A DNA stretch of 64,000 nt from Ignavibacteriales bacterium (GTDB lineage Bacteria; Bacteroidota; Ignavibacteria; UBA10030). The notes below the pieces were generated by a model. That model saw only the letters and a program-made list of their open reading frames with translations, ran no database searches and was not told the DNA's origin. The DNA is taken from the NCBI GenBank assembly GCA_026390575.1, contig JAPLFR010000016.1, forward strand, positions 534,737-598,736. Direction: 5' to 3'. This document shows positions 7,606 to 36,587 of the stretch, one piece after another (position 1 is the first letter of the stretch; each line of letters starts with the position of its first letter). The position numbers and the translations under genes are program-made.

Positions 7606-8352
7606 ATGAAACTTGCAGTTTGTATTAACCATGTACCTGATACGGCGGCAAAAATCAATATTGCGTCAGATGGGAAGAATATTGATAAAACCGGTATGAC
7701 GTTCGTTCTCAATCCTTACGATGAATACGCTATTGAAGAATGCCTTCGGTTAAAAGAAAAGAACACCGGCGAAGTAATCGCCATATCGCTTGGCGGCGAC
7801 TCGCACAAAGAAACATTGCGCAAAGCACTGGCGATGGGCGTTGATAGAGCAGTTCTATTGAAAGATGATTCACTGCGCGATTCTTTTGCTGTTGCCCGCG
7901 CACTTGCCGATGAGCTTAAAGAAATTTCTGCCGATGTTGTTTTCTTCGGTAAACAATCTGTCGATTCAGATGATGCGGCGGTTGGAACTATGGTTGCAGA
8001 AATGCTGGGATTGCCTTCCATTTCTGTCGCGGTAAAATTGGATATTGCGAACGGTAGTGCAATTGCAGAACGCGAAATCGAAGGCGGCAAAGAGAAAGTT
8101 CAAACAACACTTCCCGCAGTGTTCACGGCACAAAAGGGATTGAACGAACCGCGGTATCCATCGCTCAAAGGAATTATGTCGGCCAAGAGCAAGCCCATCG
8201 AAGAGAAAGTGCCAACACCATCGCAAGTGAAAGCAGAAGTGCTGGCAATGCGTAAACCTCCTTCCAAGAACGCCGGAAAAATTATCGGAACCGATGTGAG
8301 CGCAGTACCGGAGTTGATCCGCTTGCTCCACGAAGAAGCCAAGGTTATTTGA
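7606..8352 (+). CDS. etfB: Electron transfer flavoprotein beta subunit
   Basis: 248 aa with N-terminus MKLAVCINHVPDTAAKI and ETF-beta signature. Followed by etfA. Confidence 0.85.
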   Translation: MKLAVCINHVPDTAAKINIASDGKNIDKTGMTFVLNPYDEYAIEECLRLKEKNTGEVIAISLGGDSHKETLRKALAMGVDRAVLLKDDSLRDSFAVARALADELKEISADVVFFGKQSVDSDDAAVGTMVAEMLGLPSISVAVKLDIANGSAIAEREIEGGKEKVQTTLPAVFTAQKGLNEPRYPSLKGIMSAKSKPIEEKVPTPSQVKAEVLAMRKPPSKNAGKIIGTDVSAVPELIRLLHEEAKVI

Positions 8353-8424
8353 TTCTTTTCGATATATAATTTTAGATGAGCAGTAAACTGTTTTTTATTT
8401 AATAATTTTTCTTTTTGAATTGAT

Positions 8425-9399
8425 ATGAAAATACTTGCATTCGCAGAACAAAGAGACAATAAATTTAAAAAGTCGGCATTTGAAGTTATTCGCACAGCTC
8501 GAACAATCGCAGATCAAACAGGCGGAGACGTCATTGCTTTGGTTATCGGCGATCAAGTGCAAGCCATTGCCGGCGAGCTTGGCGGATACGGCGTATCGAA
8601 GGTTCTTATCGTCGAACAATCGAAACTTGGAAAATATTCTTCCACCGCATACGCCAAAATCATTGCGGAGGCGGCAAAAAAAGAACAGGCAGATATCATT
8701 TTTCTTTCTGCAACAGCAATGGGCAAGGATGCAGCGGCGCGTATTGCCGTGAAACTTGATGCCGGCCTTGCTTCAGATTGCACAGCTTTAAAAGTTGATG
8801 GCGGCAATATTATCGCAACACGTCCCGTGTATGCGGGCAAAGCGCTGACCGAAATAAAAATCAATTCGGCTGTTAAGGTTTTTACGCTTCGTCCTAATGT
8901 CTTTCCCGCCGGAGCAAGCACCGGTGCCGCGGCAACTGTTGAGGTCATGGATATTCCTCTTGCCGAATCAGATTTCGCATCGCTTGTCATTGAAACGATG
9001 CAAGCATCCGGCAAAATAGATGTTGCAGAAGCGGATATTATCGTTACCGGCGGACGCGGAATGAAGGGTCCGGAGAATTTTAAAATGATTGAAGACCTCG
9101 CTCATGTTCTTGGTGGAGCTGTCGGAGCTTCGCGCGCCGTTGTTGATGCCGGCTGGCGTCCGCACAATGAGCAAGTTGGACAAACCGGAAAGACTGTTTC
9201 ACCATCACTCTACATTGCTGTGGCAGTCTCGGGAGCTATTCAACATCTTGCCGGTATGTCATCCTCAAAGTATATCGTTGCCGTCAACAAAGACAAAGAC
9301 GCACCTATTTTTCAGATTGCTGATTATGGTATCGTGGCCGATGCATTTGTAATCGTTCCTGCAATCATGCTCGAAGCGAAAAAGCTTCTCGGGAAATAA
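8425..9399 (+). CDS. etfA: Electron transfer flavoprotein alpha subunit
   Basis: 324 aa with C-terminal FAD-binding region (VAVSGAIQHLAGMSSSKYIVAVNKDKDAPIFQIADYGIVADAF). Confidence 0.85.
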   Translation: MKILAFAEQRDNKFKKSAFEVIRTARTIADQTGGDVIALVIGDQVQAIAGELGGYGVSKVLIVEQSKLGKYSSTAYAKIIAEAAKKEQADIIFLSATAMGKDAAARIAVKLDAGLASDCTALKVDGGNIIATRPVYAGKALTEIKINSAVKVFTLRPNVFPAGASTGAAATVEVMDIPLAESDFASLVIETMQASGKIDVAEADIIVTGGRGMKGPENFKMIEDLAHVLGGAVGASRAVVDAGWRPHNEQVGQTGKTVSPSLYIAVAVSGAIQHLAGMSSSKYIVAVNKDKDAPIFQIADYGIVADAFVIVPAIMLEAKKLLGK

Positions 9400-19270: not shown

Positions 19271-19771
19271 ATGAATTTTACTTTCTTGCCTGATATTGTT
19301 AGTTTTTTCTTGCTTTGCTGGGCATTTAACTTGCTCTGGAAACAGCGGAAACAGTTTCAGTCTTTAATTCCAATTGCGATTGCTGTTGTTTTCTTATCCA
19401 TCGGTAGAATTTCGGATGTTATTCTTGACTTATCAATATCTCGCTACTCGTCGTCTCCGCTTGGCTGGAAGCGCGAAAGTTTTGATTTAATTTTGACAAA
19501 CGCCGGCAACATTTGCGATGTTTTAGGAATATTGCTTCTTGTTTACGGATTTCTTAAAACAATCGAGTTCCAGAAAAAGGAAAAAAAGCGGATTCAAGAT
19601 TTGGAAACTTTGCTTCCGCTTTGTGCATGGTGTAAAAAATATCGCGCGGAAAACGGCGAGTGGAAACCCATTGAAGATTATCTCCGCGATAGCGGTGCAC
19701 CGGCAGTGACACATGGTATTTGCCCGGAGTGTGCCGTTGAGCAAATGAATATAGCAAAACAAAAAGATTAA
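19271..19771 (+). CDS. Small membrane protein with C-terminal Cys4 motif (CAWCKK...HGICPEC)
   Basis: 166 aa with 3 TM segments. The conserved-looking module is LCAWCKKYRAENGEWKPIEDYLRDSGAPAVTHGICPECA. Confidence 0.5.
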   Translation: MNFTFLPDIVSFFLLCWAFNLLWKQRKQFQSLIPIAIAVVFLSIGRISDVILDLSISRYSSSPLGWKRESFDLILTNAGNICDVLGILLLVYGFLKTIEFQKKEKKRIQDLETLLPLCAWCKKYRAENGEWKPIEDYLRDSGAPAVTHGICPECAVEQMNIAKQKD

Positions 19772-20233: not shown

Positions 20234-20308
20234 GATATCTAGGTACCACATTGTGAATTGATGAAGCGAACCTTTTATATTTCCCTAAATTCTTTTATGA
20301 TAAACCCG

Positions 20309-21088
20309 ATGAAGACAATCATGTTACGTGCATGCATACTTGCACCAACGATGTTGTGCCTGTACAGCTGCGCAACGCCGCCGAAAGCCGAGAAGGAAGC
20401 GGTAGCAAAAAAACCCGAGATCACCATTCAGATTGCAAGCATCAATCTTGCCAATTTTAGCAAGAGAATTGAACGAAATAATATAATCGAACTCGTGAAG
20501 ACTCTTAAAAGTGAACAAGTTGAAATTCTTGCAATACAAGGTATTTCGCGTTATCCTGGCGTTTCATCGCGAGTAGATTTTATCAATGAACTTTCTGCAA
20601 AGATCGACTGGCGCAATGCTTTCGGCGAAATGCAGAATATTTCCGGCAGACAAACTGGAAATGCAATTTTCAGTGTGTACCCTCTGCTTTCCCACTATAA
20701 TTTTTCATGGGACGCGGTGAGATCAACAAGCTTCGAGGCGGCATTGCAAGCGACCGTTGACGCAGGAGCGCGATCGCTCGTCGTTGTAAGCACGCAATTG
20801 CCGCCTAAAGCAACAGCAAATGAGCAGGCACAATGCTTAAAATTGATTGCCGCCATGAATCCTGATACAACCCATCAGCTTCTTATTGTTGCCGGAAATA
20901 TGCCGACGGATGAAATCATTCGCACGACAAATTCGTTCGCCGAGGTTCCACCACCTGAATCCGTTAAAAGTACAACTTCAAGAATATGGTATTCGGCAAG
21001 TACATCGCTTCAATTACTCACAACCCGATCGGTGGAAACGGTGTTTGGAACACTAGTCATTGCTCAGTTTGGAGTATTGAGACAATGA
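20309..21088 (+). CDS. Lipoprotein, endonuclease/exonuclease/phosphatase (EEP)-like fold, probably degenerate
   Basis: Lipobox LYSCA. IQIASINLANF...EILAIQGI resembles the EEP N-terminal motif, but the LQE Glu is Gly. Call is weak. Confidence 0.3.
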   Translation: MKTIMLRACILAPTMLCLYSCATPPKAEKEAVAKKPEITIQIASINLANFSKRIERNNIIELVKTLKSEQVEILAIQGISRYPGVSSRVDFINELSAKIDWRNAFGEMQNISGRQTGNAIFSVYPLLSHYNFSWDAVRSTSFEAALQATVDAGARSLVVVSTQLPPKATANEQAQCLKLIAAMNPDTTHQLLIVAGNMPTDEIIRTTNSFAEVPPPESVKSTTSRIWYSASTSLQLLTTRSVETVFGTLVIAQFGVLRQ

Positions 21089-21706: not shown

Positions 21707-22891
21707 ATGTCGAACGAAAACAAACTTGACCTGCAGGCATTAAAAGAGCGCATCGGCAAACATCTGCGGACAGCAGATGAATTTACACGCTACCAGCGTT
21801 ACGAAGAAGCAATTTTAGAAATAGACTCTGCCTTAAAAATCGATCCAAAAAATAATTTCGCACGCTCGTTTCTTGAACGAGTCAAGCTCATGCAAAAACG
21901 CTCACAACAAAACGCAGCCGTGCAAAGCGGTCCGGCAGAGCTGACGCTGGAAGAGCGTATGGAAATTATTTCCCGGCACCTTTCTACGGCAGAAGATTTT
22001 GTCAACAAAAAAGATTATAAAGCTGCACTGGAAGAGATTGCAGAGGTTTATAAAATTGACCCCAAGAATTACTATGCCCAAACATTTTCCGAACGGATTG
22101 ATACATTGATGCAAGAAGGAAGTGTTGATGGGGCGAAGTTATTCAAACCGGTACTACAGGCAGAAGAATCAGACCGTGTGAGGCCTCAAGAGGATGAACG
22201 GGGCAGCATCATTATGTATCGTGAGCTTCTTAAAAATGTCTGGCTCGATGGAAAGGTAAGCGACGAGGAGGCACAGGAACTCACCGCTGTGCGAGAGCTG
22301 TTCGGCATTACTCAGGAAGACCATGAAAAACTTGAGCGCCATGTTAAAATTGAAGCGTATCTCGAAGCACTCCACATTGCATGGCGGAACAATCTTCTGA
22401 CAGAAGCAGAAAAGAAGACCCTGCACATGATGCGTGAAAAATATGACATCTCGCCGGAAGAACAAAAAATCTCAGAAGCGCGATACGATGAGGTGAAACG
22501 TCCATCAAAGTCGCACGGTACAATCCTTATTGTTGATACCGATCGAAAGATACTTGTGTCATTGGGCAAAGCCCTCAAACAACGGGGATATACTATCCTG
22601 ATGGCACAGAAAGTAGAAGACGCTTACCAGATTCTTTCCGCACAGACTCCTCATATCATCATGTCGGAACTCTTTTTTACGAATTCACAAATTGACGGTG
22701 TAGCCTTTTTCGAGAAGCTGCGAGAACATTCTGTCCTTAAGGATGTGCCATTTGTTATTATGAGTTCTCTTACTGATAGGAAAATTATTCAAGCAGGTTT
22801 GCGCCTCGGTGTTGATCATTATATCACGAAGCCGGTTGATATCGACTTATTATTAGCAATAATAGATGGAAAGTTGCGAACGTCATTGTGA
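21707..22891 (+). CDS. Atypical response-regulator-like protein: TPR-like hairpins + TerB-like repeats + receiver domain with phospho-acceptor Asp->Glu
   Basis: 394 aa. Repeated YKIDPKN helical hairpins and a repeated W.DG...E..L...R..Y.IS.EE module. C-terminal REC (ILIVDTD...PHIIMSELFF...SSLTD...ITKPVD) with E at the phosphorylation site. Confidence 0.6.
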   Translation: MSNENKLDLQALKERIGKHLRTADEFTRYQRYEEAILEIDSALKIDPKNNFARSFLERVKLMQKRSQQNAAVQSGPAELTLEERMEIISRHLSTAEDFVNKKDYKAALEEIAEVYKIDPKNYYAQTFSERIDTLMQEGSVDGAKLFKPVLQAEESDRVRPQEDERGSIIMYRELLKNVWLDGKVSDEEAQELTAVRELFGITQEDHEKLERHVKIEAYLEALHIAWRNNLLTEAEKKTLHMMREKYDISPEEQKISEARYDEVKRPSKSHGTILIVDTDRKILVSLGKALKQRGYTILMAQKVEDAYQILSAQTPHIIMSELFFTNSQIDGVAFFEKLREHSVLKDVPFVIMSSLTDRKIIQAGLRLGVDHYITKPVDIDLLLAIIDGKLRTSL

Positions 22892-23237
22892 CCCCGCAAA
22901 TATTCTCGTTCGCTTGGATTTAAAAGTCGTTGAAACAGCATCAATAATATTGCTTTATACGAATGCAGAAAAAAGGAAATAAGAAGGAATAGATTGCCCC
23001 GGAATAATTCTACCAATCACTGCATAACTGCACGGCACTTTTGGTCAGAGACATTGTCTTACCGCTCATGAAGTAGATAAGTATACAAAAAAATCGAAGA
23101 AAAACGCACATCCATCGATTGTATGTCTGCTGTATCACATCTTGTTCCTACATCACATTCGGTTTCCCATCCGTAATATATCTTTCATTCGAAAATTCAT
23201 TGAAGTAATATTTACAATAGAATGAAAACATAATAAT

Positions 23238-24545
23238 TTGGATTCATCGAAAATGGAAAAAACAATGTTCACGAAAAGACCACTTTCTGTTGATACAACA
23301 AAAGAATTCACCGGCGAACATCTTCGAGAGGCAGACAAGTTCGTCCGTCTCAAACGGTATGATGACGCCTTGCAGGAAATTGAAACCGCCTATAAAATTG
23401 ATCCGAAAAACGCATACATTCGTTCTTTTCTTGAACGGACACAGTATATGATCGAGAAGGAAAATGAAAAGCGATCGCAGGTGTTCGGTGAAACGAGCAA
23501 GACGAACGAAGACCGTATGGAAGTCATATCAGAATTGTTCGCATCCGCAGAAACCTTCACGAAGGAAAAAAAATACCCAAAAGCATTGAATGAGCTGGCA
23601 AAAGTATATCGTATTGATCCAAAGAATTATAACGCCCATGCATTATCAGATCGTATCGTGGCATTGATGCGGGCTGAAAAGGACTTACCTAAAACGCAGA
23701 CTCCTCAATCTATCGAATCAACGCCGGACATAGTTCTGTTAGAAAAACCAGTCAATGTTGTAGAAAACGAAATACCAACGCAGCCTGTAGATATTCCGCA
23801 GCCGCAATCAACACCAATCAGCGAGCAGCAAGAAGAGTTTAGCCGGTTCGCATTATACAGGGAGTTGCTCAAGGAATGCTGGGCAGACGGTGTTATTACT
23901 CACGAAGATTCTGAGATGCTTCATCGTGCGCGTTCACAATATTCAATTTCCTTTGATACCCATTGCCAAATTGAAGTTGACATCAAGATCGATGCGTACG
24001 TTGACGCGTTACGTATTGTGTGGAGAGACGGCGTTGTGGATGATCATGAAAATGAAATCTTAGAAATCATGCGTAAGAAATACGGAATCACACAGGAAGA
24101 ACAAGCGGCAGCAGAGAAGAAATTTTCTGCATTTCGTACAACCAACCAATCAAAGGCAATGATCCTGATCGTAGAGAATGATCATGATAACTCGATATAT
24201 GTTGCGCGGGCACTTATGAATCATGGCTATGATGTTAAAATTGAACGACACCCGGATGATGCGATTCACTTTCTAAGCACACATACACCGGATCTCATTC
24301 TGAGTGAAGCTGTTTTTCCACAAGTGAACACAGATGGTTTTGAGTTCTTTCAGAGAACGCGTTTGGACAAACGGTTGAGTCCGATACCATTTCTCATGAT
24401 GACGGAACTCGGCGATGCGCGCGTTATGCGAGCGGGATTACGCATGGGAGTGGATTATTTTATTCCCAAACCTTTACATATCGGTTACATGGTGGCAATT
24501 ATAGAGGGCAAACTCAAATCTGAACTGCAAACAACTTCGAAGTAA
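23238..24545 (+). CDS. Paralog of 21707..22891 (TPR-like + TerB-like repeats + pseudo-receiver, Asp->Glu)
   Basis: 435 aa with the same architecture. REC segment PDLILSEAVFPQ...MMTELGD...IPKPL. Confidence 0.6.
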   Translation: MDSSKMEKTMFTKRPLSVDTTKEFTGEHLREADKFVRLKRYDDALQEIETAYKIDPKNAYIRSFLERTQYMIEKENEKRSQVFGETSKTNEDRMEVISELFASAETFTKEKKYPKALNELAKVYRIDPKNYNAHALSDRIVALMRAEKDLPKTQTPQSIESTPDIVLLEKPVNVVENEIPTQPVDIPQPQSTPISEQQEEFSRFALYRELLKECWADGVITHEDSEMLHRARSQYSISFDTHCQIEVDIKIDAYVDALRIVWRDGVVDDHENEILEIMRKKYGITQEEQAAAEKKFSAFRTTNQSKAMILIVENDHDNSIYVARALMNHGYDVKIERHPDDAIHFLSTHTPDLILSEAVFPQVNTDGFEFFQRTRLDKRLSPIPFLMMTELGDARVMRAGLRMGVDYFIPKPLHIGYMVAIIEGKLKSELQTTSK

Positions 24546-24578: not shown

Positions 24579-25760
24579 TTACTCTGGACTGATAACCTCA
24601 CCGACCACAGGCAAATGGATCAATTGAAGCTCCTTCTTTCCTTCTTTACTCACCATTGCATGCTCAAAATAAAATTTAACTCCTTTGGCGTTTTGCAGGT
24701 ACGGTGAATCCTGCAAATGATAATGCAGTACCGGCTCTGTTGCATTTCCAGAACTGCCGCACTTTGCAAGCACTTGCCCGCGGATTACTTTATCTCCCAC
24801 TTTTACACGAATACTTCCTTGTTTCAAAAAGGCAAGAACTGAATATTCTTTTCCGGAATGCTGGATGATTATTGTGTTGCCGATTTGTGCGTACGGATTG
24901 CGCGTGCCGGGAGAATTCTCACGAATGCCGTCAATAACTTCAACAACCGTACCGTTGGCTGGAGCGATAATATCCTTTCCGTATCCGACATAATCTTCAT
25001 TTGCTTTTCCATCATTCTTATAGCGAGATCCGCCTGCATCTGTTCCGGAAAATTCGTACGCATACTGTTGCTGCAGCAAGTTACTCTGCGATGTGCCTTC
25101 GCGTAATTCGCCGCCGGCGATGACAGCCCACGTGCCTGTAAATGGTACATATAATTGCGTCTGTTGTTTGTCGCGAACGACTGGAGCAACGGGCTGCTTC
25201 ACCGGACTGGGTGATGGTGTGGAACTCGGTGCAACTTCCTTCACAGCTTCTGAATATGCGGAAGAATCTGAGTTAGATTTAGGTGCTGCCGGCTTCGCGG
25301 ACGACGAAATTGGTGTTTGGACTGCCGCTGCATTTGGTTCTGTTGTATTTGATGGATTCGGTTGAGGTTCCGAAGCAACGTGAGTAGTAAAAAGAAAACC
25401 TTTTATCTTTCCTTGATCATCGATGTAAAGCGTCAAATCTTGTGCACCGCGTTCGGAATACATAACACAAAAAGCTTGGTCTACTGCTCTCACTTCAGGC
25501 GGATCTACTTTGATAACTTTTCCGAAAGTATCAAAATTGTTTTTAAAAAAATACGTCGTTTTAAAAAGGGGAAACGCAGCCGACATCCCTTTGTCGTACT
25601 CCCGCACTATTCCATTATAATCCTGGTTGTTCATTGCCTCAACCAGCCGGTTGATAATTTTTACAAACCTCTCTTTTCCCTGTTCCTGTGCAAACAGCGG
25701 CTGCGCGATGCCCAAGAATAAAAGAATGTATATCGTTCTCCTCATGATCGATCCTTTCAT
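24579..25760 (-). CDS. Secreted M23-family (LytM-like) metallopeptidase
   Basis: 393 aa with signal peptide and Pro/Ala/Ser-rich linker. C-terminal M23 motifs HxxxD-like (GKDIIAPANGTV...IQHSGKEYSVLAFL...LHYHL). Confidence 0.75.
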   Translation of the reverse strand: MKGSIMRRTIYILLFLGIAQPLFAQEQGKERFVKIINRLVEAMNNQDYNGIVREYDKGMSAAFPLFKTTYFFKNNFDTFGKVIKVDPPEVRAVDQAFCVMYSERGAQDLTLYIDDQGKIKGFLFTTHVASEPQPNPSNTTEPNAAAVQTPISSSAKPAAPKSNSDSSAYSEAVKEVAPSSTPSPSPVKQPVAPVVRDKQQTQLYVPFTGTWAVIAGGELREGTSQSNLLQQQYAYEFSGTDAGGSRYKNDGKANEDYVGYGKDIIAPANGTVVEVIDGIRENSPGTRNPYAQIGNTIIIQHSGKEYSVLAFLKQGSIRVKVGDKVIRGQVLAKCGSSGNATEPVLHYHLQDSPYLQNAKGVKFYFEHAMVSKEGKKELQLIHLPVVGEVISPE

Positions 25761-27437: not shown

Positions 27438-28631
27438 TCAGTTCTGAAGAATTCTCCGTGCACGCACGAACTTCTTCAGGAGCGGCTCTTCATAATAGTC
27501 CGATGATGGATTCAAACTGCTCACCCGTACTCTTTTTGAACTGTGAAGGTACAATCCGTTTTCCAGGTATAAAGCAACATGGGTAATACGTTCCTGCCGT
27601 TTCGCTGTCGCTTTTCGGCCGAAGAATAGTAAATCCCCCTTCTCCAAATTTTGGAAATTCTCCCCCGGCTCAATGGGCTTTCCTTGCTGTGCCTGCTGCC
27701 TGGCATCACGATTTAATTCCACGCCATTCAAATGGTACACAGTTTTTACAAACCCTGAACAATCCATACCTTTCACTGACATGCCGCCCCAGAGATAACG
27801 AATGCCCAAAAATGATCTCGCGGTCTTCTCAAGATTCTCGCCTGTCGGCACCCGGCTTCTCTTCCATTCGTCAAGGTCTTGAACAAGCGACTCCGGCACA
27901 AATCCATTTTTTCCATCTGCACGTTCCACTGCAATCCACCCGTTTTGCCTGCCGTTGTTTTTCAAAATACATCCGTCAATTATTTCGCACACAGCTGTAG
28001 AGGATGTATCTGTTCGTGCATGTACTACGCCCATAAAATTTGTGACAATCACTTTGGAGGCAGCATTCCATGCATCCACACCAGCTTGATTGCACACAAC
28101 CATGGAAGCAGAATCGAGCCAGCCAAGATAGTGATCGGGAGTTTGAATGAAAAAATATCCGCGTTCCTTTTTCAGCAATGTAACAATAGTCCCCATCAAT
28201 GCTTGCGTCAGAAGCTCTTCCTGCTTTCCTGGTCTCCGGCGAACATCAGCCACAGGAAGTGTAACGATACCCGCTATGTTCGGTCCGAGTGCAGCTTCGG
28301 GCAACACATGGATACTGTCGATCACTGTGCCCTTGACAATTTTTTGCAATGCATGAATTACAGCACTCTTCGCTTCAGGGTTATCGACTTCTCCATGGAG
28401 GATAATTCCTTTTTCGACCTGTCTATAAGAAATGTCAAAAACTGCGAGCTGCAAATCTGGTGCATAACGCTGCTGAACGGATTGGAGAATGTGTTTGATT
28501 TGGACAGTATTGATCTGACTATTATTACGGATAACTCCCATACGCTGTTGATATGGTGTAACTCGTGCCGCTCCTGCGAACAGTAAGAGAAGAACAACAA
28601 TAGAATATTTTGCGAAAAAAAATTTCATCAA
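27438..28631 (-). CDS. NlpC/P60-family peptidoglycan endopeptidase with SH3-like domain
   Basis: 397 aa. Signal peptide. C-terminal RYLWGGMSVKGMDCSGFVKTVY (catalytic Cys) ...HVALYL (His). Confidence 0.8.
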   Translation of the reverse strand: MMKFFFAKYSIVVLLLLFAGAARVTPYQQRMGVIRNNSQINTVQIKHILQSVQQRYAPDLQLAVFDISYRQVEKGIILHGEVDNPEAKSAVIHALQKIVKGTVIDSIHVLPEAALGPNIAGIVTLPVADVRRRPGKQEELLTQALMGTIVTLLKKERGYFFIQTPDHYLGWLDSASMVVCNQAGVDAWNAASKVIVTNFMGVVHARTDTSSTAVCEIIDGCILKNNGRQNGWIAVERADGKNGFVPESLVQDLDEWKRSRVPTGENLEKTARSFLGIRYLWGGMSVKGMDCSGFVKTVYHLNGVELNRDARQQAQQGKPIEPGENFQNLEKGDLLFFGRKATAKRQERITHVALYLENGLYLHSSKRVRVSSLNPSSDYYEEPLLKKFVRARRILQN

Positions 28632-29050: not shown

Positions 29051-29818
29051 ATGAGAGAAGAACATTACGACATTTCCGGTATAAACTTTAACTTCTCAAT
29101 AATGAGGATTAATACCCTAAGCGTTCTTTGGATTTGTGCGTTAGTTGTGGCAATCAGAATGAATTATGAAGCGACATTCCTGACCTGGGAGCAGGGGCCA
29201 CAAATGATAGGATTTAGTTTTGTTCATTCCTATGGGGCATTATTGATATTAGCGTCGCTCATTCTAATCATAATAACTTTTATCCAGATGGTTAGAATAA
29301 TAATCAAGTTATTCAAGAAATCGAAGATTGAACGTCAATACTTTATTTGTTTCATAATTTCGATCTTCTTTATTTGCTTAAACTTTATTCCTTATAGTGT
29401 TGCACAGACATTTATGATTCATTCCCAAGGATTACCAAAAGATACTCTACGATTCTTTACAAACGCAGCACATGATGGCGATCTAGGAATAATGAAATTG
29501 ATGATAAAGAAAAGGTATCAGCCAGACAGCACCGTCTTTTCGACTTGTTTGTTTAATGCTTGTTTCAGTGGACATAGAGATGTTATAGAGTATTCCTTGG
29601 AACATGGTGCCAACATCAATTATCAAACCGATGATTTTAAGACGACACCATTAATGATTGCTGCCGAGAAAGACGAATCAGAAACAATTGAATTTTTATT
29701 GGCGCATGGGGCTAATCCTAGGTTAAGAGACGAATTTGAAGAAGAAAGAACAGCGTTGGATTGGGCTGTATATTATAAAAATAAAAAAAGTATTTCAATA
29801 TTGAGCAAGTATAAATAG
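29051..29818 (+). CDS. Membrane-anchored ankyrin-repeat protein
   Basis: 255 aa. N-terminal TM segments. C-terminal ANK repeats (TPLMIAAEKDESETIEFLLAHGANP...). Very AT-rich codon usage. Confidence 0.65.
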   Translation: MREEHYDISGINFNFSIMRINTLSVLWICALVVAIRMNYEATFLTWEQGPQMIGFSFVHSYGALLILASLILIIITFIQMVRIIIKLFKKSKIERQYFICFIISIFFICLNFIPYSVAQTFMIHSQGLPKDTLRFFTNAAHDGDLGIMKLMIKKRYQPDSTVFSTCLFNACFSGHRDVIEYSLEHGANINYQTDDFKTTPLMIAAEKDESETIEFLLAHGANPRLRDEFEEERTALDWAVYYKNKKSISILSKYK

Positions 29819-29883
29819 TGTTTCTCTACACCATCATCCTCTTCACGAGAGTTGTTATGATCAAACATATAAAAGGATAACTC

Positions 29884-30384
29884 ATGACTATTACCAGAGT
29901 ATTTTTTACCGGTGTCATTATTTTGTGTTTCATTACAATTCGAAATGATGCAAGACAATCACGACCCGAAATACTCACCATCGATCCAATAAAACCCTCT
30001 AATCTTGTTTTAACTGGAGATTCCGCCTTCTTTAGCAGGGATGCAAAAAAAGTTAAAAAACACAGAAAGATGAAAGATACATCAGATGCTCCGCCCTATG
30101 AAGGAATTCCTCTTTCACAGCAACCGACATTCTTGAAAATGATTATTCCTAAATGTCCCAAGGAAGCAATCATTAAATCAATGACTGGTACAACCAAAGT
30201 AAAAGTTTGGGTTGATGAGCATGGTAATCCAAGGCTTGCAGTAATAATGGAATCATCAGACAAGATTTTCAATGAGTGTTCATTGATATCGGCAATGCAG
30301 TGGACATTTAAACCAGCAATGAACGACAATAAACCAACTTCATCATGGATGTATATTCCATTTCGTTTTCGGAACTGTAAATAA
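29884..30384 (+). CDS. TonB C-terminal domain protein (N-terminal TM anchor)
   Basis: 166 aa. KCPKEAIIKSMTGTTKVKVWVDEHGNP...AMQWTFKPA matches the TonB_C fold signature. Confidence 0.55.
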   Translation: MTITRVFFTGVIILCFITIRNDARQSRPEILTIDPIKPSNLVLTGDSAFFSRDAKKVKKHRKMKDTSDAPPYEGIPLSQQPTFLKMIIPKCPKEAIIKSMTGTTKVKVWVDEHGNPRLAVIMESSDKIFNECSLISAMQWTFKPAMNDNKPTSSWMYIPFRFRNCK

Positions 30385-30415
30385 TTCATTGGCGTCTAGC
30401 CTGCGGCTCCCCGCA

Positions 30416-30446
30416 ATCCCGATAGAAAGCGGCAGGAGTTATCATA
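30416..30446 (+). promoter_or_regulatory. Island motif copy 2, 25 bp upstream of 30471 start
   Basis: caATCCCGatagAAAGCGGCAGGAGTTatcata. Confidence 0.45.
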
Positions 30447-30470
30447 AGTTAGGTTCATAAGAGGAAAAAA

Positions 30471-31163
30471 ATGGAAAGTGATTATGCCGAATGCCGGATC
30501 TGCAAGTACCAGTTCCACAAACCTGACGTTGATGATACTGGCATAAGAATTAAGTGCCCATCTTGCGGAGGACTTGCAAGGAACTATTATGTCTCGCTTA
30601 GTGGTACGGTATATGCGGTTGGTTCGGTAGAAGCTACTCTTACAGTCGCAAGTGAACCTAACCCGGAGATCGAAGCTGTTTTTAAGCTAGATGACAAGTT
30701 CGCCGGAAAAAGTATAATTGAATATTCAAACATTGTCGACGAGAAGCTAATAGATTACTTTAGTGCGCACCCACAAGAACTAAAGACAATGAATCGCAGA
30801 GGTTTTGAAGATCTAGTTGCAGAACTATTCCACGGATTTGGCTACGATGTCGAGCTAACTAAGCAGACTCGTGATGGTGGCAGAGATATCATAGTTGTCA
30901 GAAATTCTGAGGTTAAGGTAAAGTACTTAATCGAATGCAAGAGACCTGACCCCGGGAAAAAAGTTGGTGTGCAGCCAGTTAGAGAACTTTTTGGTGTAAA
31001 AAATGACGAGTTGGCTACAAAAGCAATTCTCGCCACAACAGCATACTTCTCAAGGGATGCAAAATTATTTTATGAAAAGCATGAATGGGAACTCGAATTA
31101 AGAGATTACAATGACTTGATTGAATGGATAAGAATATATCTAAATATGAAAGGCAGAGGATAA
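30471..31163 (+). CDS. Zinc-ribbon + Mrr_cat (PD-(D/E)xK restriction-endonuclease-like) domain protein
   Basis: 230 aa. N-terminal CxxC...CxxC (CRICKY...CPSCGG). C-terminal FEDLVAELFHGFGYDVELTKQTRDGGRDIIVV...YLIECKR...TTAYFSRDAKLF matches the Mrr N-terminal catalytic domain pattern (D...ExK). Confidence 0.65.
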   Translation: MESDYAECRICKYQFHKPDVDDTGIRIKCPSCGGLARNYYVSLSGTVYAVGSVEATLTVASEPNPEIEAVFKLDDKFAGKSIIEYSNIVDEKLIDYFSAHPQELKTMNRRGFEDLVAELFHGFGYDVELTKQTRDGGRDIIVVRNSEVKVKYLIECKRPDPGKKVGVQPVRELFGVKNDELATKAILATTAYFSRDAKLFYEKHEWELELRDYNDLIEWIRIYLNMKGRG

Positions 31164-31226
31164 GCCTAGCCGCCATCCATTAAGTAGTGTATAATCGGAG
31201 AATAAACAAAGGAGCGTCTCATAAAG

Positions 31227-31715
31227 GTGAAATCAATATTTTTTATTTTAATTCCGATTTTTATTTCTTGTTCCCACTCAACCACTCCGCCTGAAATGAG
31301 AGACTTTAATTTTAAGTTCAGTTATGGGGTTAACGAACGGAATATTATCAACACATTTCAAAATACCTATACAAAGGATTTAATTTCCGATGGAGATACT
31401 ACGGTTCCATTTACACTATCCGCCAATGACTTGAAGCAAATTTTGGATAAAATGAATGAAATCGGTTTTTTTGAATATCCTGATACTTTTATTGTACCTA
31501 CAGAGGGCCCCGTTACAATAGTGAGACCTTTTTCGATATACAGATTTGATGTATGCGCTAAGGTGTCGAAAAAACACCTTTACTGGAAAGATGAAATAAA
31601 GAATGAAAATGCTCAGGCGACAAAACTGCGAGAACTTAATGCACTCATCATAGGAATTATACAATCGAAACCGGAATATTCACAGCTGCCTCTCGCAAGC
31701 GGTGGTTACTTATAA
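31227..31715 (+). CDS. Lipoprotein, unknown function
   Basis: GTG start. Lipobox LIPIFISCS. 162 aa. Confidence 0.45.
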   Translation: MKSIFFILIPIFISCSHSTTPPEMRDFNFKFSYGVNERNIINTFQNTYTKDLISDGDTTVPFTLSANDLKQILDKMNEIGFFEYPDTFIVPTEGPVTIVRPFSIYRFDVCAKVSKKHLYWKDEIKNENAQATKLRELNALIIGIIQSKPEYSQLPLASGGYL

Positions 31716-31732
31716 ACAATATGTGGCCCACA

Positions 31733-31763
31733 ATCCCACCGGAAAACAGTGGGAGTTGCACCC
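31733..31763 (+). promoter_or_regulatory. Island motif copy 3, 46 bp upstream of 31809 start
   Basis: caATCCCAccggAAAACAGTGGGAGTTgcaccc. Perfect TCCCA/TGGGA dyad. Confidence 0.5.
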
Positions 31764-31808
31764 TGCGAGACGGCGAAGGCATACACGTAACAATAAAATG
31801 ATATTATC

Positions 31809-32366
31809 ATGACTTCTCCAATGCACTTCACACGTACACATCTTGAACAAGCCTTAACAGCGGAACAATTGCGAGGAATTCTCATCATTAGAATTGCTCT
31901 GATGCTTGGAATCTCGTTCTATTACTTCGTCGTTTTTCTCTTGTACTCCATGTTCAATCCTGAAGGCTTTAGCAAACAAGATGTGTCGTTGATGCATGTG
32001 CTTTCCACAGCACATGCTGTGTTTACGCTGGCAGCTGCTACAACAGCGTTCTATCTCTCAAGCCTTCAACTGCGTCCCGAACGTCTCACCGGGCAGTCAG
32101 ACATTCAAACACCGGAAGATGCGGCTTTGTATGCCGTGGGATTATACCGGACAAGTTCAATAATACTCATGGCGCCAATTGAAGGAGCATCCTTCTTCGG
32201 AGCCGTGATTTGTATGATAGGTGTTCAGAACGGGACAATCGAATTTTATCCGATGTATTGGCTGAATGCTGCATCTGCTGTTTTATTAGTCTTGGTAGGA
32301 ATCATGACATTCCCGACACGCAAGAGGGTTCTCGAAACGTTGGAGTCTGCATTCGTGCAACGGTGA
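31809..32366 (+). CDS. Membrane protein, unknown function
   Basis: 185 aa with 4-5 hydrophobic segments. Confidence 0.45.
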   Translation: MTSPMHFTRTHLEQALTAEQLRGILIIRIALMLGISFYYFVVFLLYSMFNPEGFSKQDVSLMHVLSTAHAVFTLAAATTAFYLSSLQLRPERLTGQSDIQTPEDAALYAVGLYRTSSIILMAPIEGASFFGAVICMIGVQNGTIEFYPMYWLNAASAVLLVLVGIMTFPTRKRVLETLESAFVQR

Positions 32367-32404
32367 TTCTTATGAGGCTGCGGGCTAGATAGCAATTCTC
32401 CGCT

Positions 32405-32435
32405 ATCCTGTTTTTAAACAGCGGTACTGTGAGCG
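32405..32435 (+). promoter_or_regulatory. Island motif copy 4 (weaker), upstream of isochorismatase-family gene
   Basis: ctATCCTGttttTAAACAGCGGTACTGtgagcg. Confidence 0.3.
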
Positions 32436-32465
32436 GCATTTTAACTATTGGTCAATTGGAGAAAA

Positions 32466-33002
32466 ATGAAAGTATTATTAATCATAGATATGCAGGTGGG
32501 ATCTTTTAAGCCTGAAACGCCGCGCTATGATGCCGATGGTGTTGTGGAAAGAATAAATTCATTATCAGATTATTTCCGGCATAATGGAGACAAAGTAATT
32601 TTTATCCAACACGATGGAACGAAGGAAAATTCATATATTCCCGGTACATCTGATTGGAATATTTTACCAACGCTCATTCAGCGTCCGGATGATATTATCC
32701 TGGGTAAAACGGCTAACGATTCATTCTATAATACAGATTTAGAAACCATATTGAAAAAAAATGATATAACTGATTTATTTATTACTGGCTGTGCGACAGA
32801 TTTTTGTGTCAACGCGACTGTGCATTCTGCTTTAATCAAGGATTATAATATTTTCGTGGTCAAAGATTGTCATACAACAGCAAATCGTTCTTATTTGAGC
32901 GCTGAAAAAGTGATTCAATATCATAATTGGCTCTGGGAGAATATGACTCCCACGAATGGACAAATAAAATTAGTTTTATCAAAGGATTTAATAAAAGTTT
33001 AA
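32466..33002 (+). CDS. Isochorismatase-family cysteine hydrolase
   Basis: Start taken at MKVLLIIDMQ. Catalytic Cys region ITGCATDFCVNATV. Confidence 0.7.
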   Translation: MKVLLIIDMQVGSFKPETPRYDADGVVERINSLSDYFRHNGDKVIFIQHDGTKENSYIPGTSDWNILPTLIQRPDDIILGKTANDSFYNTDLETILKKNDITDLFITGCATDFCVNATVHSALIKDYNIFVVKDCHTTANRSYLSAEKVIQYHNWLWENMTPTNGQIKLVLSKDLIKV

Positions 33003-33041
33003 AATCCCATTCCACCCGATGTTTTTGCAGAAGGAAGATAA

Positions 33042-33476
33042 ATGGCAAAAAGACTTCCGATAACAGATGTTCCTTGTAATGGCTGTACCCTGTGTTGCCA
33101 GGGCGACGCCGTGAGGCTTGAGAAAGATGACACTGCGATGCAGTATGAAACCGAACCTCATCCATTCATACCGGGCGCATTCATGCTTGCTCACAAATCA
33201 AATGGTGAATGTATATACTTGGACAAAAATGGCTGCAGAATCCATGAGCACGCACCCTCTTTGTGCCGGCTCGCCGATTGCCGCAGTCTCGCTCTACGGA
33301 TAGACTATGAAACAGCAAGGCGGCTTCATTTTATGAACAGATTGGATATTCGAGTATGGGATCAAGGACATAAACTTCTCGAAAAAATGGTTGTACAAAA
33401 CAATAATGATCATTCATGTGCGGCTATTGCCGATATGAGAAAACGCCTAAGCAGGCACTCTCCACTATCCCGTTAA
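33042..33476 (+). CDS. YkgJ-family cysteine-cluster protein (CxxCxxCC, UPF0153)
   Basis: CNGCTLCCQGD N-terminal motif. Additional Cys at ECIYLDKNGCRIHEH...CRLADC. Confidence 0.6.
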   Translation: MAKRLPITDVPCNGCTLCCQGDAVRLEKDDTAMQYETEPHPFIPGAFMLAHKSNGECIYLDKNGCRIHEHAPSLCRLADCRSLALRIDYETARRLHFMNRLDIRVWDQGHKLLEKMVVQNNNDHSCAAIADMRKRLSRHSPLSR

Positions 33477-33525
33477 AAACATCGGGACACATAAAACGCG
33501 GAGAGCAGTGGGAATTGCAACTCCC
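33467..33525 (+). promoter_or_regulatory. Island motif copy 5 (extended/duplicated form), 71 bp upstream of 33596 start
   Basis: ctATCCCGttaaAAACATCGGGACAC...aaaacgcggagagCAGTGGGAATTGCAACTCCC. Confidence 0.45.
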
Positions 33526-33595
33526 GTCGGTCAAGCGGCTTTTATAAAAGTTCAGTAGAATCTTCAAGAACTATAAGGGGAAATAAGGTAAGAAT

Positions 33596-34084
33596 ATGGA
33601 AACAATTATTAATTCAAAGAATGAAATGTTCCGTCATAGTATCGCAACCTTAGCGTATCGTGCGGCAAAAACGCTCCGTAATGCCCCTGAAAATTTTGCC
33701 ACATTTCGGATCGATGCTAAATCCAGAACATCTGTTGAAATTCTAACGCACATGGGCGACCTCATAGTTTGGGCGCTTTCGATGGCAAAGGGAAAAGGCA
33801 TCTGGCATGAATCAACTCCACAGGATTGGGAGAGTGAAGCTGCTCGTTTCTTTGACTCTATAAGACAATTTGATACATACCTGGCAAGCGGTTCTACGAT
33901 TGCATGCCCATTGGAAAAGTTATTTCAAGGACCAATCGCTGACGCGCTGACGCACGTTGGCCAGCTTGCTATGCTGCGGCGTCTGGCAGGAGCTCCAATC
34001 ATAGGCGAGAACTATTTCGTAGCAGATATCATAGTTGGACGTGTCGGCCCTGAGCAATCTCAACCTCGAAAGACGTTTGGTTAA
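33596..34084 (+). CDS. DinB/YfiT-like (DinB_2) family protein
   Basis: 162 aa. The HMGDLIVWAL...H...H pattern is typical of the DinB four-helix bundle metal site. Confidence 0.5.
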   Translation: METIINSKNEMFRHSIATLAYRAAKTLRNAPENFATFRIDAKSRTSVEILTHMGDLIVWALSMAKGKGIWHESTPQDWESEAARFFDSIRQFDTYLASGSTIACPLEKLFQGPIADALTHVGQLAMLRRLAGAPIIGENYFVADIIVGRVGPEQSQPRKTFG

Positions 34085-34148
34085 AGTATTACAGAACTCC
34101 AGACTGTAAGGCGGTCATGAGTCAACCCTTCCAGAAAGAGAGGAATAA

Positions 34149-34511
34149 ATGAATGAATTATTTTCGTACTGTGGCCTCGTTTGCAGCACCTGCCCTATTT
34201 ACTTGGCAACGAGAGAAGTCAACAAAGAAGAGCAGATAAAAAAGAGAACCGAGATCGCCAGAATTTGTAAAGAACACTATAGAATGAATTACGAGCTGTC
34301 AGACATCACTGATTGCGACGGCTGCCACACGGAAGGCGGAAGATTGTTTTCAGGATGTACGACGTGCACTATAAGAGAATGCGCAAAACAAAAGGCAATA
34401 GAAAACTGCGCGTATTGTTCAGAATATATCTGCCAGAAACTTGAATTATTTTTCGTCCAGGATCCATCTGCAAAGATACGTTTGGACGAGATAAGAAATA
34501 GAATTTCTTAA
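34149..34511 (+). CDS. Cysteine-rich DUF3795-like protein
   Basis: 120 aa. CGLVCSTCPIY, CDGCH, CTTCTIRECA, CAYCSEYICQ motifs. Confidence 0.5.
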   Translation: MNELFSYCGLVCSTCPIYLATREVNKEEQIKKRTEIARICKEHYRMNYELSDITDCDGCHTEGGRLFSGCTTCTIRECAKQKAIENCAYCSEYICQKLELFFVQDPSAKIRLDEIRNRIS

Positions 34512-34790: not shown

Positions 34791-36587
34791 ATGGTTGATA
34801 GAATGACGGCAGATATAATTATATCAATGATTGCAGCGGTTGGATTTATCCTGGCGTCGCTCTATGTTATCATCGCACGCAGGGTGAGACCATCGTGGAA
34901 AGCCGGTGTTTTAATTTTACTCTCGTGCGCCGATGTCACTCTGGCACATGCTTTACAAGGTATCAATTTTGATTTTGCAACAAAAGTATTCTGGTACAAG
35001 ATGTGCATTTTGGGTTTTACCATTACTCCTACGGCATTCTTCTGTCTTACTCTGCGTTACGGCGGATGGGGGAACATACTCACAACCCGTACGCTTGTTA
35101 TGCTTAGTGTTTTCCCTGCCTTGAGCGCAGGGCTTATTCTCACGAACGAAATACATGGCTTAGTCTGGAATCCTGCGAGTATAGCACGTATCGTAAACAT
35201 AACAACCTTTGTTTCTATTACCGACGCGCGTATCTGGTATTGGTTATTTGTTGCTTACTCGTATTTACTCATGGGCGTCGGCTGCTTTTTTCTTATCCGA
35301 TTATTGATATTGTCGCATGGAATCTATGGATGGCAAGCCGGTGCAGTAGTATTTGCTGCAATACTTGCATTGCTTGGTGTTCTGTTGGATTTTCTCGTTA
35401 TGAGCCCTCTCCCGCCATTCGCAGCAACTGCATTGGGAATGGCTGCAGGATCTATTACAGTAGCTTTTCTTTTACCCTCTCTCCGGCGTCGCGATCTGAT
35501 ATATATTTCTCGCAGAGCAATCATTGACAGTATTAGTGATAGTATCATGGTCGTGGATGGAGAAAATCGTATTGTGGAAATGAATCCTTCAGCAGAAAAG
35601 TTGATAAGCGAACTTGCCTCGCAAGCAATCGGCAAACATATAGATCAATTTTTGCCGGAATTGAGTTCACATTGGATTCATAATGCCAATATCAGCAGTG
35701 AGGTGACACTGAAGCGTGGAGAGACGACATATATCTTTGACCTGCACGTTTCGATCATTCATGATTGGCAAGGGCACATCGCAGGTCGATCGATTGACCT
35801 GCATGATATTTCAGACCGGAAACGTGCAGAAGAACAAGTCCGTACATTGAATGAAGAGTTGGAATTCCGTGTCATCGAACGCACAAAACAGTTGGAAGCA
35901 GCAAACAAGGAACTTGAAGCTTTTGCATATTCGGTTGCGCACGATTTGCGCGCACCACTAAGAGCAATCGATGGCTTTGCGCATATTCTGCTGGAAGATT
36001 ATGAAAATTTACTGGGCAAGGAAGGGAAACGTTTGTGTACTATTATTTACGGCGAGTCACAGCAAATGGGCAGATTGATCGACGATCTTCTTGCTTTCTC
36101 TCATATCAGCCATACTGAAATACAAATGACCTTGATCGATATGGAGGATCTTGTAAAATCCATTTTCTACAAATTATCAACCCCGAAAAGTCGAGAACGT
36201 ATTGATTTCCAGGTAGGTCCTTTACCGAAAACAATGAGCGACATAACGCTCATCAGCGAGGTGTGGCTCAACCTCATCTCCAACGCTATAAAATTTTCCT
36301 CTAAGCGGGAGCGTGCGATCATTGAAGTGAGTTATCTCCAAGAAGGAGATAACATCATATACTTGGTTCGGGATAATGGAGCCGGATTTGATATGCGATA
36401 TGCAGGCAAGCTCTTTACCATTTTCTGGCGCATGCACAGTGATAAAGAATTTGAAGGCACCGGCATTGGTTTGGCTATTGTTCAGCGTCTCATTCGTCGG
36501 CATGGCGGAGAAGTATGGGCCGAGAGTGAAGTGGATAAAGGCGCAACTTTTTATTTTACTCTTCCACAGAAAAGAAGTCGATCGTGA
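34791..36587 (+). CDS. Sensor histidine kinase (polytopic N-terminal membrane domain, PAS, HisKA, HATPase_c)
   Basis: 598 aa. 6-7 TM N-terminus. H-box FAYSVAHDLRAPLR. N/G boxes (NAIKFS...DNGAGFD...GTGIGLAIV). Confidence 0.8.
   Translation: MVDRMTADIIISMIAAVGFILASLYVIIARRVRPSWKAGVLILLSCADVTLAHALQGINFDFATKVFWYKMCILGFTITPTAFFCLTLRYGGWGNILTTRTLVMLSVFPALSAGLILTNEIHGLVWNPASIARIVNITTFVSITDARIWYWLFVAYSYLLMGVGCFFLIRLLILSHGIYGWQAGAVVFAAILALLGVLLDFLVMSPLPPFAATALGMAAGSITVAFLLPSLRRRDLIYISRRAIIDSISDSIMVVDGENRIVEMNPSAEKLISELASQAIGKHIDQFLPELSSHWIHNANISSEVTLKRGETTYIFDLHVSIIHDWQGHIAGRSIDLHDISDRKRAEEQVRTLNEELEFRVIERTKQLEAANKELEAFAYSVAHDLRAPLRAIDGFAHILLEDYENLLGKEGKRLCTIIYGESQQMGRLIDDLLAFSHISHTEIQMTLIDMEDLVKSIFYKLSTPKSRERIDFQVGPLPKTMSDITLISEVWLNLISNAIKFSSKRERAIIEVSYLQEGDNIIYLVRDNGAGFDMRYAGKLFTIFWRMHSDKEFEGTGIGLAIVQRLIRRHGGEVWAESEVDKGATFYFTLPQKRSRS

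Follow-up and report, generated by a model that had tools for sequence, protein, structure and literature searches.

The stretch of DNA analyzed here (the window) comprises 64,000 nt from a metagenome-assembled genome (MAG) of the Ignavibacteriales, in which the interval 21707-24545 holds two adjacent genes, referred to as A and B (Table 1). Each encodes a protein with two TPR-like units at the N-terminus, a helical middle domain and a receiver domain at the C-terminus in which the phospho-acceptor aspartate is replaced by glutamate. The two products align end to end with 37% identity (E = 4e-99), so that the initial annotation of the interval as adjacent genes with identical architecture was borne out by full-length paralogs. 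As also stated there, neither protein carries a DNA-binding output domain. Gene B is read from a TTG codon, with alternative in-frame ATG starts at 23253 and 23265, and its closest database relative has 427 amino acids. A database protein named "response regulator [Ignavibacteriales bacterium]" (P0001) is 100% identical to A, and no NCBIfam family matched A, B or their unannotated neighbors. The AlphaFold2 (AF2) model of A, with a mean predicted local distance difference test score (pLDDT) of 83 and a predicted template modeling score (pTM) of 0.42, is composed of two N-terminal three-helix units (residues 9-71 and 81-141), followed after a disordered linker by the middle domain with five helices (residues 166-264) and by a (beta-alpha)5 receiver (residues 272-393).

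Table 1. Coordinates in the window of genes A and B, of the spacer between them and of the domains and pocket positions that they encode.
Feature	Coordinates	Strand	Basis
Gene A, two TPR-like units, TerB/Tic110/ENT-like middle domain, C-terminal pseudo-receiver	21707..22891	+	Open reading frame, 394 amino acids, ATG start
A, TPR-like unit 1, three helices, residues 8-72, LKIDPKN at 43-49	21728..21922	+	AF2 helices 9-28, 32-45, 50-71
A, TPR-like unit 2, residues 80-141, YKIDPKN at 115-121	21944..22129	+	AF2, repeat identity, sub-threshold Pfam
A, middle five-helix domain, residues 163-268, W-x-D-G...E helix-loop-helix duplicated	22193..22510	+	AF2 pLDDT 89.8
A, pseudo-receiver, residues 270-392	22514..22882	+	Response_reg 60 bits, PDB alignments, dN/dS 0.155
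A, DD pair position, D277 kept, T278 (DD2 lost)	22535..22540	+	"ilivdtd" vs "vlivddq" of CheY2; family table
A, E321 codon GAA, phospho-acceptor position	22667..22669	+	Aligned to acceptor Asp of CheY2, Spo0F and 3t6k
Spacer A-B, 346 bp, partly conserved blocks	22892..23237	+	Alignment with L001, L002, L004 and L005
Gene B, A-like architecture, longer Pro/Gln-rich linker	23238..24545	+	Open reading frame, 435 amino acids from TTG
B, middle TerB/Tic110/ENT-like domain, residues 200-303	23835..24146	+	Middle-domain hidden Markov model E 1.9e-40; sub-threshold ENT, Tic110
B, pseudo-receiver, residues 306-428	24153..24521	+	Response_reg 50.3 bits, PDB alignments, dN/dS 0.134
B, E357 codon GAA, phospho-acceptor position	24306..24308	+	Aligned to RpaA D53 and acceptor Asp of 3gt7 and PleD

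Both receiver domains score above the Pfam Response_reg (PF00072) cut-off of 30.2 bits, and in the AF2 model of A the domain forms five strand-helix units (residues 272-393) with pLDDT above 90. In six PDB alignments (CheY2, Spo0F, 3t6k, RpaA, 3gt7 and PleD), the Glu of PHIIMSE in A (E321) and of PDLILSE in B (E357) occupies the position of the acceptor Asp, which agrees with the Asp-to-Glu replacement first proposed. A true acceptor retained at a neighboring position was looked for and rejected: no Asp adjoins the acceptor position in A or B, and the next one downstream is that of a conserved DG, nine residues on.

The rest of the pocket had been described as intact, with its acidic residues, the Thr/Ser and the Lys all kept. 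The last two are present, as S353 and K375 in A and T389 and K411 in B, together with an aromatic residue at K-3, which is Y372 in A and F408 in B; K+2 in A is V377. Of the acidic residues only the first of the DD pair (DD1) is kept, as D277 in A and E313 in B, whereas the second acidic residue of this Mg2+-binding pair (DD2) is replaced by T278 in A and N314 in B. Since DD2 is lost, the Mg2+ site required for phosphotransfer chemistry is gone. A pseudo-receiver is defined as a receiver that lacks any of five catalytic residues, and an aspartate-less receiver (ALR) as a PF00072 domain without the acceptor Asp (PMC4395418, PMC12632262). Judged from their sequences, the receivers of A and B are ALR pseudo-receivers, above the PF00072 threshold with acceptor Asp and DD2 missing, and they are almost certainly no longer phosphorylatable.

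Relatives were collected from 5.8 billion proteins, with at least 174 found for A and about 89 for B, and a genome scan gave 59 loci, all in Ignavibacteria or "Bacteroidota" MAGs, a MAG of Ignavibacterium album among them. By these searches, the family is confined to Ignavibacteria. Pocket positions were tabulated over 171 distinct family sequences. All 42 sequences with Asp at DD2 and Phe at K+2 had Asp as the acceptor, while in the 126 sequences with DD2 lost and Ala, Ile, Leu or Val at K+2 the acceptor was Glu (117), Asp (6), Ala (2) or Gly (1); two sequences showed a mixed pocket state. The canonical pocket is DD, D, S and K with Phe at K+2; canonical sequences have Gly at T+1, where the Glu group mostly has Ser. 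A neighbor-joining tree rooted with more distant relatives placed the canonical forms in one clade and all degenerate forms in the other. A and B each have a clade of their own within the latter, alongside several Glu-type lineages with a single copy. In this tree B takes the basal position among the degenerate forms, which may be a long-branch effect. Since all 24 more distant relatives of the same architecture are canonical (DD, D, S/T, K), the canonical state is taken as ancestral.

In the B type, the degenerate pocket (DD1 Asp or Glu, DD2 lost, E, T, K and mostly Leu at K+2) is uniform over about 75 cluster representatives, with E, T and K in nearly all of them, and the pocket recurs in more than 100 A-type representatives. 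The acceptor alternates between Glu and Asp inside the degenerate clade (P0045, P0060, L015 and L024) and is acidic in 123 of the 126 sequences, which points to retention of the acidic side chain for structural reasons and not for phosphorylation. Some single-copy degenerate members have gone further: one (L045, 7977-9143) has the acceptor replaced by Ala, the T residue by Leu and the Lys by Arg, and in others (L017, L019, L025 and L029) the T residue is Val. A metagenome scan with the alignment of the distant canonical relatives picked up a generic receiver motif and generic receiver loci only, with no context information, and a literature search on Ignavibacteria response regulators with TPR gave nothing relevant.

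Selection was estimated from the ratio of nonsynonymous to synonymous substitution rates (dN/dS), calculated pairwise among orthologs for each region in the A clade and the B clade. Values for the receivers (Table 1) lie in the range of those for the N-terminal units (0.12 in A and 0.21 in B) and the middle domain (0.17 and 0.09), with the linker at 0.53 and 0.48. Both receivers are maintained by purifying selection.

At the N-terminus, units 1 and 2 of A share 42% identity (E = 3e-15), which marks them as a true internal repeat, and each is modeled as one hairpin followed by a long third helix. The two IDPKN hairpins reported for each protein are real, although the motif varies, with LKIDPKN in the first unit of A and, in B, YKIDPKN at residues 52-58 and YRIDPKN at residues 124-130. 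Their description as TPR-like found support in Pfam scores, which just reached the cut-offs in B (TPR_19 28, cut-off 25; TPR_2 27.1, cut-off 27) but remained below them in A (19.4 and 17.1, respectively). Unit 1 of A also gave sub-threshold matches to TPR and Fis1_TPR_C.

The middle domain had been described as a duplicated W.DG...E module of TerB type. The duplication could be confirmed, but it is visible at the profile level only: BLASTP of one half of the A domain against the other gave no match, while hhalign of the two half-profiles gave a probability of 98% (E = 6e-14), so that by profile comparison the domain is an internal duplication. Residues D181, G182, E188, D228 and E235 are invariant or nearly so. 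Against a gathering threshold of 24.4 bits for TerB (PF05099), full-length A reached 11.9 bits and the isolated domain 16.2 bits, and no TerB match was listed for B in the Pfam scan. When the middle domains of 30 family members were compared alone with Pfam, 29 matched Tic110, 26 TerB and 25 ENT, all below threshold, with best E-values of 4e-6 for TerB and 4.7e-7 for ENT. Tic110 and ENT score equal to or above TerB on this domain.

What held of the TerB assignment is a distant homology, reached through intermediate sequences. A search of 1.84 billion representative proteins with the middle-domain profile retrieved 734 proteins at E ≤ 0.001, among which were canonical proteins with a TPR-like unit, middle domain and receiver, others with one TPR-like unit and middle domain but no receiver, and stand-alone middle domains, one of them named "tellurite resistance protein" by JGI. 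Several of the retrieved proteins exceed Pfam thresholds for TerB, Tic110 or ENT, such as P0139 for TerB (72.7 bits) and Tic110 (84.7 bits) and P0144 for ENT (53.8 bits), and hhalign of the middle-domain profile with P0139 gave a probability of 96.6%. At the structural level, Foldseek against the PDB gave a best E-value of 0.84, with none ≤ 0.001 and a weak template modeling score of 0.42 for the TerB-like 2ou3, while the ENT hairpin superposes on the modeled domain with a root-mean-square deviation of 0.9 Å over 47 residues. When PDB sequences were searched with the middle-domain profile, all matches had E ≥ 0.11, and nothing relevant was found in the literature on TerB, Tic110, DjlA and ENT together.

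By these comparisons, the middle domain is not a member of Pfam TerB but a remote relative of TerB, the Tic110 repeats and ENT. It shares with TerB (PF05099, including the N-terminal domain of DjlA), Tic110 (PF16940) and ENT of EMSY (PF03735) a repeated helix-loop-helix with the motif (W/A)-x-D-G-x5-E...L...(I/L)-(S/T)-x-E-E, and A and B differ from these proteins in that every gathering score failed and in the lack of any tellurite-resistance, J-domain or chloroplast context. These results define a helical domain that is mobile and so far unnamed, related to these three families and fused elsewhere to receivers, TPRs, HNH nucleases and Hsp70.

Four relatives (P0139, P0157, P0161 and P0169) consist of arrays of three to five TerB/Tic110-like repeats with a C-terminal HNH nuclease. 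In PADLOC, the middle domain of A matched the candidate defense model PDC-S48 weakly (E = 7e-9), and the HNH-fused repeat proteins may be the protein type behind that model; a defense function of A and B was not adopted from so weak a match. In a further protein, from a Ktedonobacteraceae MAG (P0207), an Hsp70 ATPase is fused to several TerB/Tic110-like repeats. DjlA combines TerB with a J domain, and the two cases taken together hint at a recurrent link of the TerB/Tic110-like fold with Hsp70 chaperones.

The proposal that A and B are a dedicated signaling pair did not hold for the family as a whole. The tandem arrangement was restricted to the subclade closest to the window (L001, L002, L004, L005, L007-L012 and L026), and the other loci, which make up most of the family, are single-copy; in L003, L006 and L013 only A was found within 8 kb. 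A and B are separated by 9-12 nt in L007-L012 and by 146-368 nt in the closest relatives of the window. Within the spacer of the window, blocks of sequence are conserved in L001, L002, L004 and L005, one at about 23050-23075 holding an AGACAnTGTCT palindrome and another, AT-rich, at about 23160-23205. No Rfam match to the spacer and no RNA fold shared among the longer spacers were found, and the spacer probably holds a promoter or operator for B. In one tandem locus, L026, the A-type copy (8001-9180) is broken up into two open reading frames that overlap, with Ala at the acceptor, beside an intact B copy; this is either a decaying gene or a sequencing or assembly frameshift in this MAG.

The initial annotation pointed to a nearby histidine kinase and a DUF421 protein. 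Apart from A and B, the window has no receiver-domain gene, and its sole kinase is an orphan of the seven-transmembrane (7TM)-PAS-HisKA-HATPase type (34791-36587), located 10 kb downstream with no receiver gene beside it. A histidine kinase gene adjoins a family gene neither in the window nor in any of the 59 related loci. The kinase was thus rejected as cognate partner, being neither adjacent nor a conserved neighbor. The DUF421 gene is a direct neighbor of the pair in only 3 loci. Among the related loci, neither a kinase nor a methyltransferase or phosphatase gene recurs as a conserved neighbor, and no functional partner was identified from the analysis of their neighbors.

The explanation that we favor, and hold to be fairly probable, is that A and B are orphan, phosphorylation-independent ALR adaptors without enzymatic or DNA-binding output, descended from a canonical protein. 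The ancestor would have been a canonical, phosphorylatable protein of the Ignavibacteria with TPR-like units, a TerB-like domain and a receiver. In the A/B clade, DD2 would have been lost, the acceptor changed to Glu and the Phe at K+2 replaced by an aliphatic residue, with the receiver fold, DD1, the Ser/Thr, the Lys and the aromatic switch residue kept under purifying selection. The receiver would then be held permanently in one conformation, most likely active-like, and act as a fixed module for protein interaction or dimerization, with the TPR-like and TerB-like helical domains binding one or more partners. Any residual regulation could be exerted through the expression level or through binding of a ligand or partner to the helical domains, and A and B may form a heteromer after their tandem duplication.

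From the pocket residues, a state of A and B locked "ON" by Glu is plausible. Glu is the commonest replacement of the acceptor in ALRs (26%), which usually keep DD1 and the Lys and usually lose DD2 (PMC4395418), and aliphatic residues at K+2 are enriched in pseudo-receivers and favor active conformations of CheY (PMC12632262). Several points weigh against the favored explanation. Glu is phosphomimetic in some receivers and not in others (PMC4395418, PMC12632262). Among the distant canonical relatives, K+2 is Phe in 11 and aliphatic in 13, so that an aliphatic K+2 alone is no marker of a pseudo-receiver, and the co-variation of acceptor, DD2 and K+2 goes back essentially to a single split in evolution and not to 171 independent events. 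In the model of A, the individual domains are confident, but their relative placement is uncertain, as indicated by the low pTM. In favor of the explanation, D-type and E-type loci were not found together in any scanned genome, including the 3.64-Mb chromosome with L008, by a pattern scan that could miss divergent paralogs; one MAG did have two family loci, both of the D type.

The same residues could instead belong to a receiver frozen in an inactive or non-signaling state, in which case A and B would be kinase-blind competitors or structural scaffolds, for instance titrating the partners of canonical paralogs. Canonical relatives of the same architecture do exist in Ignavibacteriales and Bacteroidota MAGs, Asp-to-Glu replacement alone fails to activate CheY, PhoB and Spo0A (PMC4395418), and the further loss in some clade members of the Ser/Thr (to Val, Ala or Leu), and in L045 even of the Lys, fits a non-signaling pocket. 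This locked-off or decoy role is nevertheless considered unlikely: the Ser/Thr, the Lys and the K-3 aromatic residue are kept in A and B and the acceptor is nearly always acidic, which speaks for an interaction of the Glu with the Lys or the Ser that has been maintained, and against an irrelevant pocket; K+2 is always aliphatic in the degenerate clade, a residue class reported as activating; and no scanned genome was seen to have members of both the D type and the E type. Less likely still, and in our view improbable, is that the proteins are covalently regulated at another site, such as the Asp two residues past DD1, a Ser or Thr, or the Glu, which could be methylated or phosphorylated. A third acidic residue is indeed conserved (D279 in A and D315 in B), Glu methylation and other modifications have been raised as possible for ALRs (PMC4395418), and the orphan 7TM-PAS histidine kinase lies 10 kb downstream; set against this are the absence of any Asp adjoining the acceptor position, the removal with DD2 of the Mg2+ site for phosphotransfer, the lack of a kinase, methyltransferase or phosphatase as conserved neighbor, and the fact that no Glu phosphorylation is known in bacterial signaling (PMC4395418).

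It is very improbable that the duplicates are degenerating, with Glu and the lost DD2 as signs of a decay that turns one or both genes into pseudogenes. The split A copy with an Ala acceptor in L026 and the Ala acceptor and Lys-to-Arg change in L045 would be in line with it, but the receiver dN/dS of 0.13-0.16, like that of the other domains, largely excludes it. Moreover, the window and more than ten loci have both open reading frames uninterrupted, the same pocket recurs in the A-type and B-type cluster representatives counted above, and L026 comes from a MAG, in which the frameshift could be an assembly or sequencing error. Returning to phosphorylation-independent adaptors, a bolder version of this explanation can be formulated, although we regard it as a long shot. 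A scaffold would have been rewired to phosphorylation-independence by a coordinated change at three sites (Asp to Glu, loss of DD2, K+2 from Phe to aliphatic) and duplicated into an obligate A-B heteromer, with the TerB-like domain as a new sensor of a metal, a ligand or a chaperone client, and this heteromer would control the conserved neighboring M23 and NlpC/P60 cell-wall hydrolases. If the rewiring were true, evolution would have run a natural experiment in this family, converting a scaffold under phosphorylation control into a phosphorylation-independent one.

Among known proteins, A and B resemble the Glu-type ALRs of Chlamydia (ChxR), plants (pseudo-response regulators) and Ascomycota (Rim15p) (PMC4395418, PMC12632262, PMC3960148) in having a PF00072 fold with Asp-to-Glu replacement, DD1 and Lys kept and DD2 lost. 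They are also, like these, orphan genes without an adjacent kinase and embedded among canonical relatives, a placement that implies that they arose independently within a normal family. They differ in the absence of a DNA-binding or kinase output, in the C-terminal position of the receiver behind TPR-like and TerB-like domains, in the confinement of the family to Ignavibacteria and in that some loci carry two paralogs in tandem. FrzS of Myxococcus xanthus (PDB 2gkg and 2i6f), whose receiver is a sequence match of A (E = 3.5e-7), likewise combines a pseudo-receiver with an all-helical interaction region and no enzymatic or DNA-binding output; unlike in A and B, its receiver is N-terminal with Ala at the acceptor, a coiled coil takes the place of the TPR-like and TerB-like domains, and it is not an orphan.

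For the pair as such, BldM and WhiI of Streptomyces (PMC4125116) offer a parallel: both are atypical orphan response regulators, and they belong to the same family and the same organism. Their heterodimer is a precedent for a phosphorylation-free paralog pair (PMC4125116), and an interaction between A and B may be conjectured by analogy. BldM and WhiI differ from A and B in being DNA-binding regulators of the NarL type and in not being encoded in tandem. RssB and CheV are adaptor-type response regulators with a protein-binding output and canonical, phosphorylated receivers, the receiver of CheV being C-terminal. Both RssB (PMC6546054) and CheV are similar to A and B in the coupling of a receiver to an interaction module that does not bind DNA, in CheV with the same C-terminal placement, and dissimilar in that their receivers are canonical and phosphorylated and their partner domains unrelated.

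Pseudo-receivers account for several percent of all receiver domains, and the switching of bacterial ones is an open question (PMC12632262). Glu at the acceptor position with a lost DD2 is the textbook aspartate-less pattern and will not surprise a specialist. The Glu-type pseudo-receiver is already known, and what is new is its occurrence in an unstudied, lineage-restricted architecture with canonical relatives. The family allows a clean comparison of canonical and pseudo-receivers in one architecture and one bacterial class, with pockets that differ at few defined positions and with canonical members available for comparison, including one at locus L032 in the Ignavibacterium album MAG.

Regarding the wider surroundings, the D-type and E-type clades lie in different syntenic contexts (peptidases, RdgB, amidase, radical-SAM gene, lipoprotein). 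D-type loci are located between an S46 peptidase and RdgB, and a third context has an outer-membrane protein upstream. E-type loci have in common a radical-SAM gene, an AHSA1-like gene and a 276-amino-acid lipoprotein upstream and M23 and NlpC/P60 peptidases, in convergent orientation, downstream. In the window, the latter are an M23 peptidase at 24579-25760 (-) and an NlpC/P60-SH3 peptidoglycan hydrolase at 27438-28631 (-); they are kept in 13-14 related loci, which may be plain synteny of close relatives.

Further downstream, a run of nine small same-strand genes (29051-34511) has no link to the pair and includes ankyrin-repeat, TonB_C, Mrr-type restriction endonuclease, isochorismatase, CxxCxxCC and DUF3795 genes, with three lacking any match. 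Upstream, the lipoprotein gene of the window (20258-21088) encodes 276 amino acids with an LYSC lipobox-like signal sequence and has no Pfam or NCBIfam match. It is the most consistent upstream neighbor of Glu-type members (21 loci), and a resemblance to the endonuclease/exonuclease/phosphatase fold was noticed by eye only. Another gene without Pfam or NCBIfam match (19271-19771) encodes a predicted membrane protein of 166 amino acids with a C-terminal CxxC...CPEC motif (cluster 38), which is kept beside the radical-SAM gene in a few related loci.

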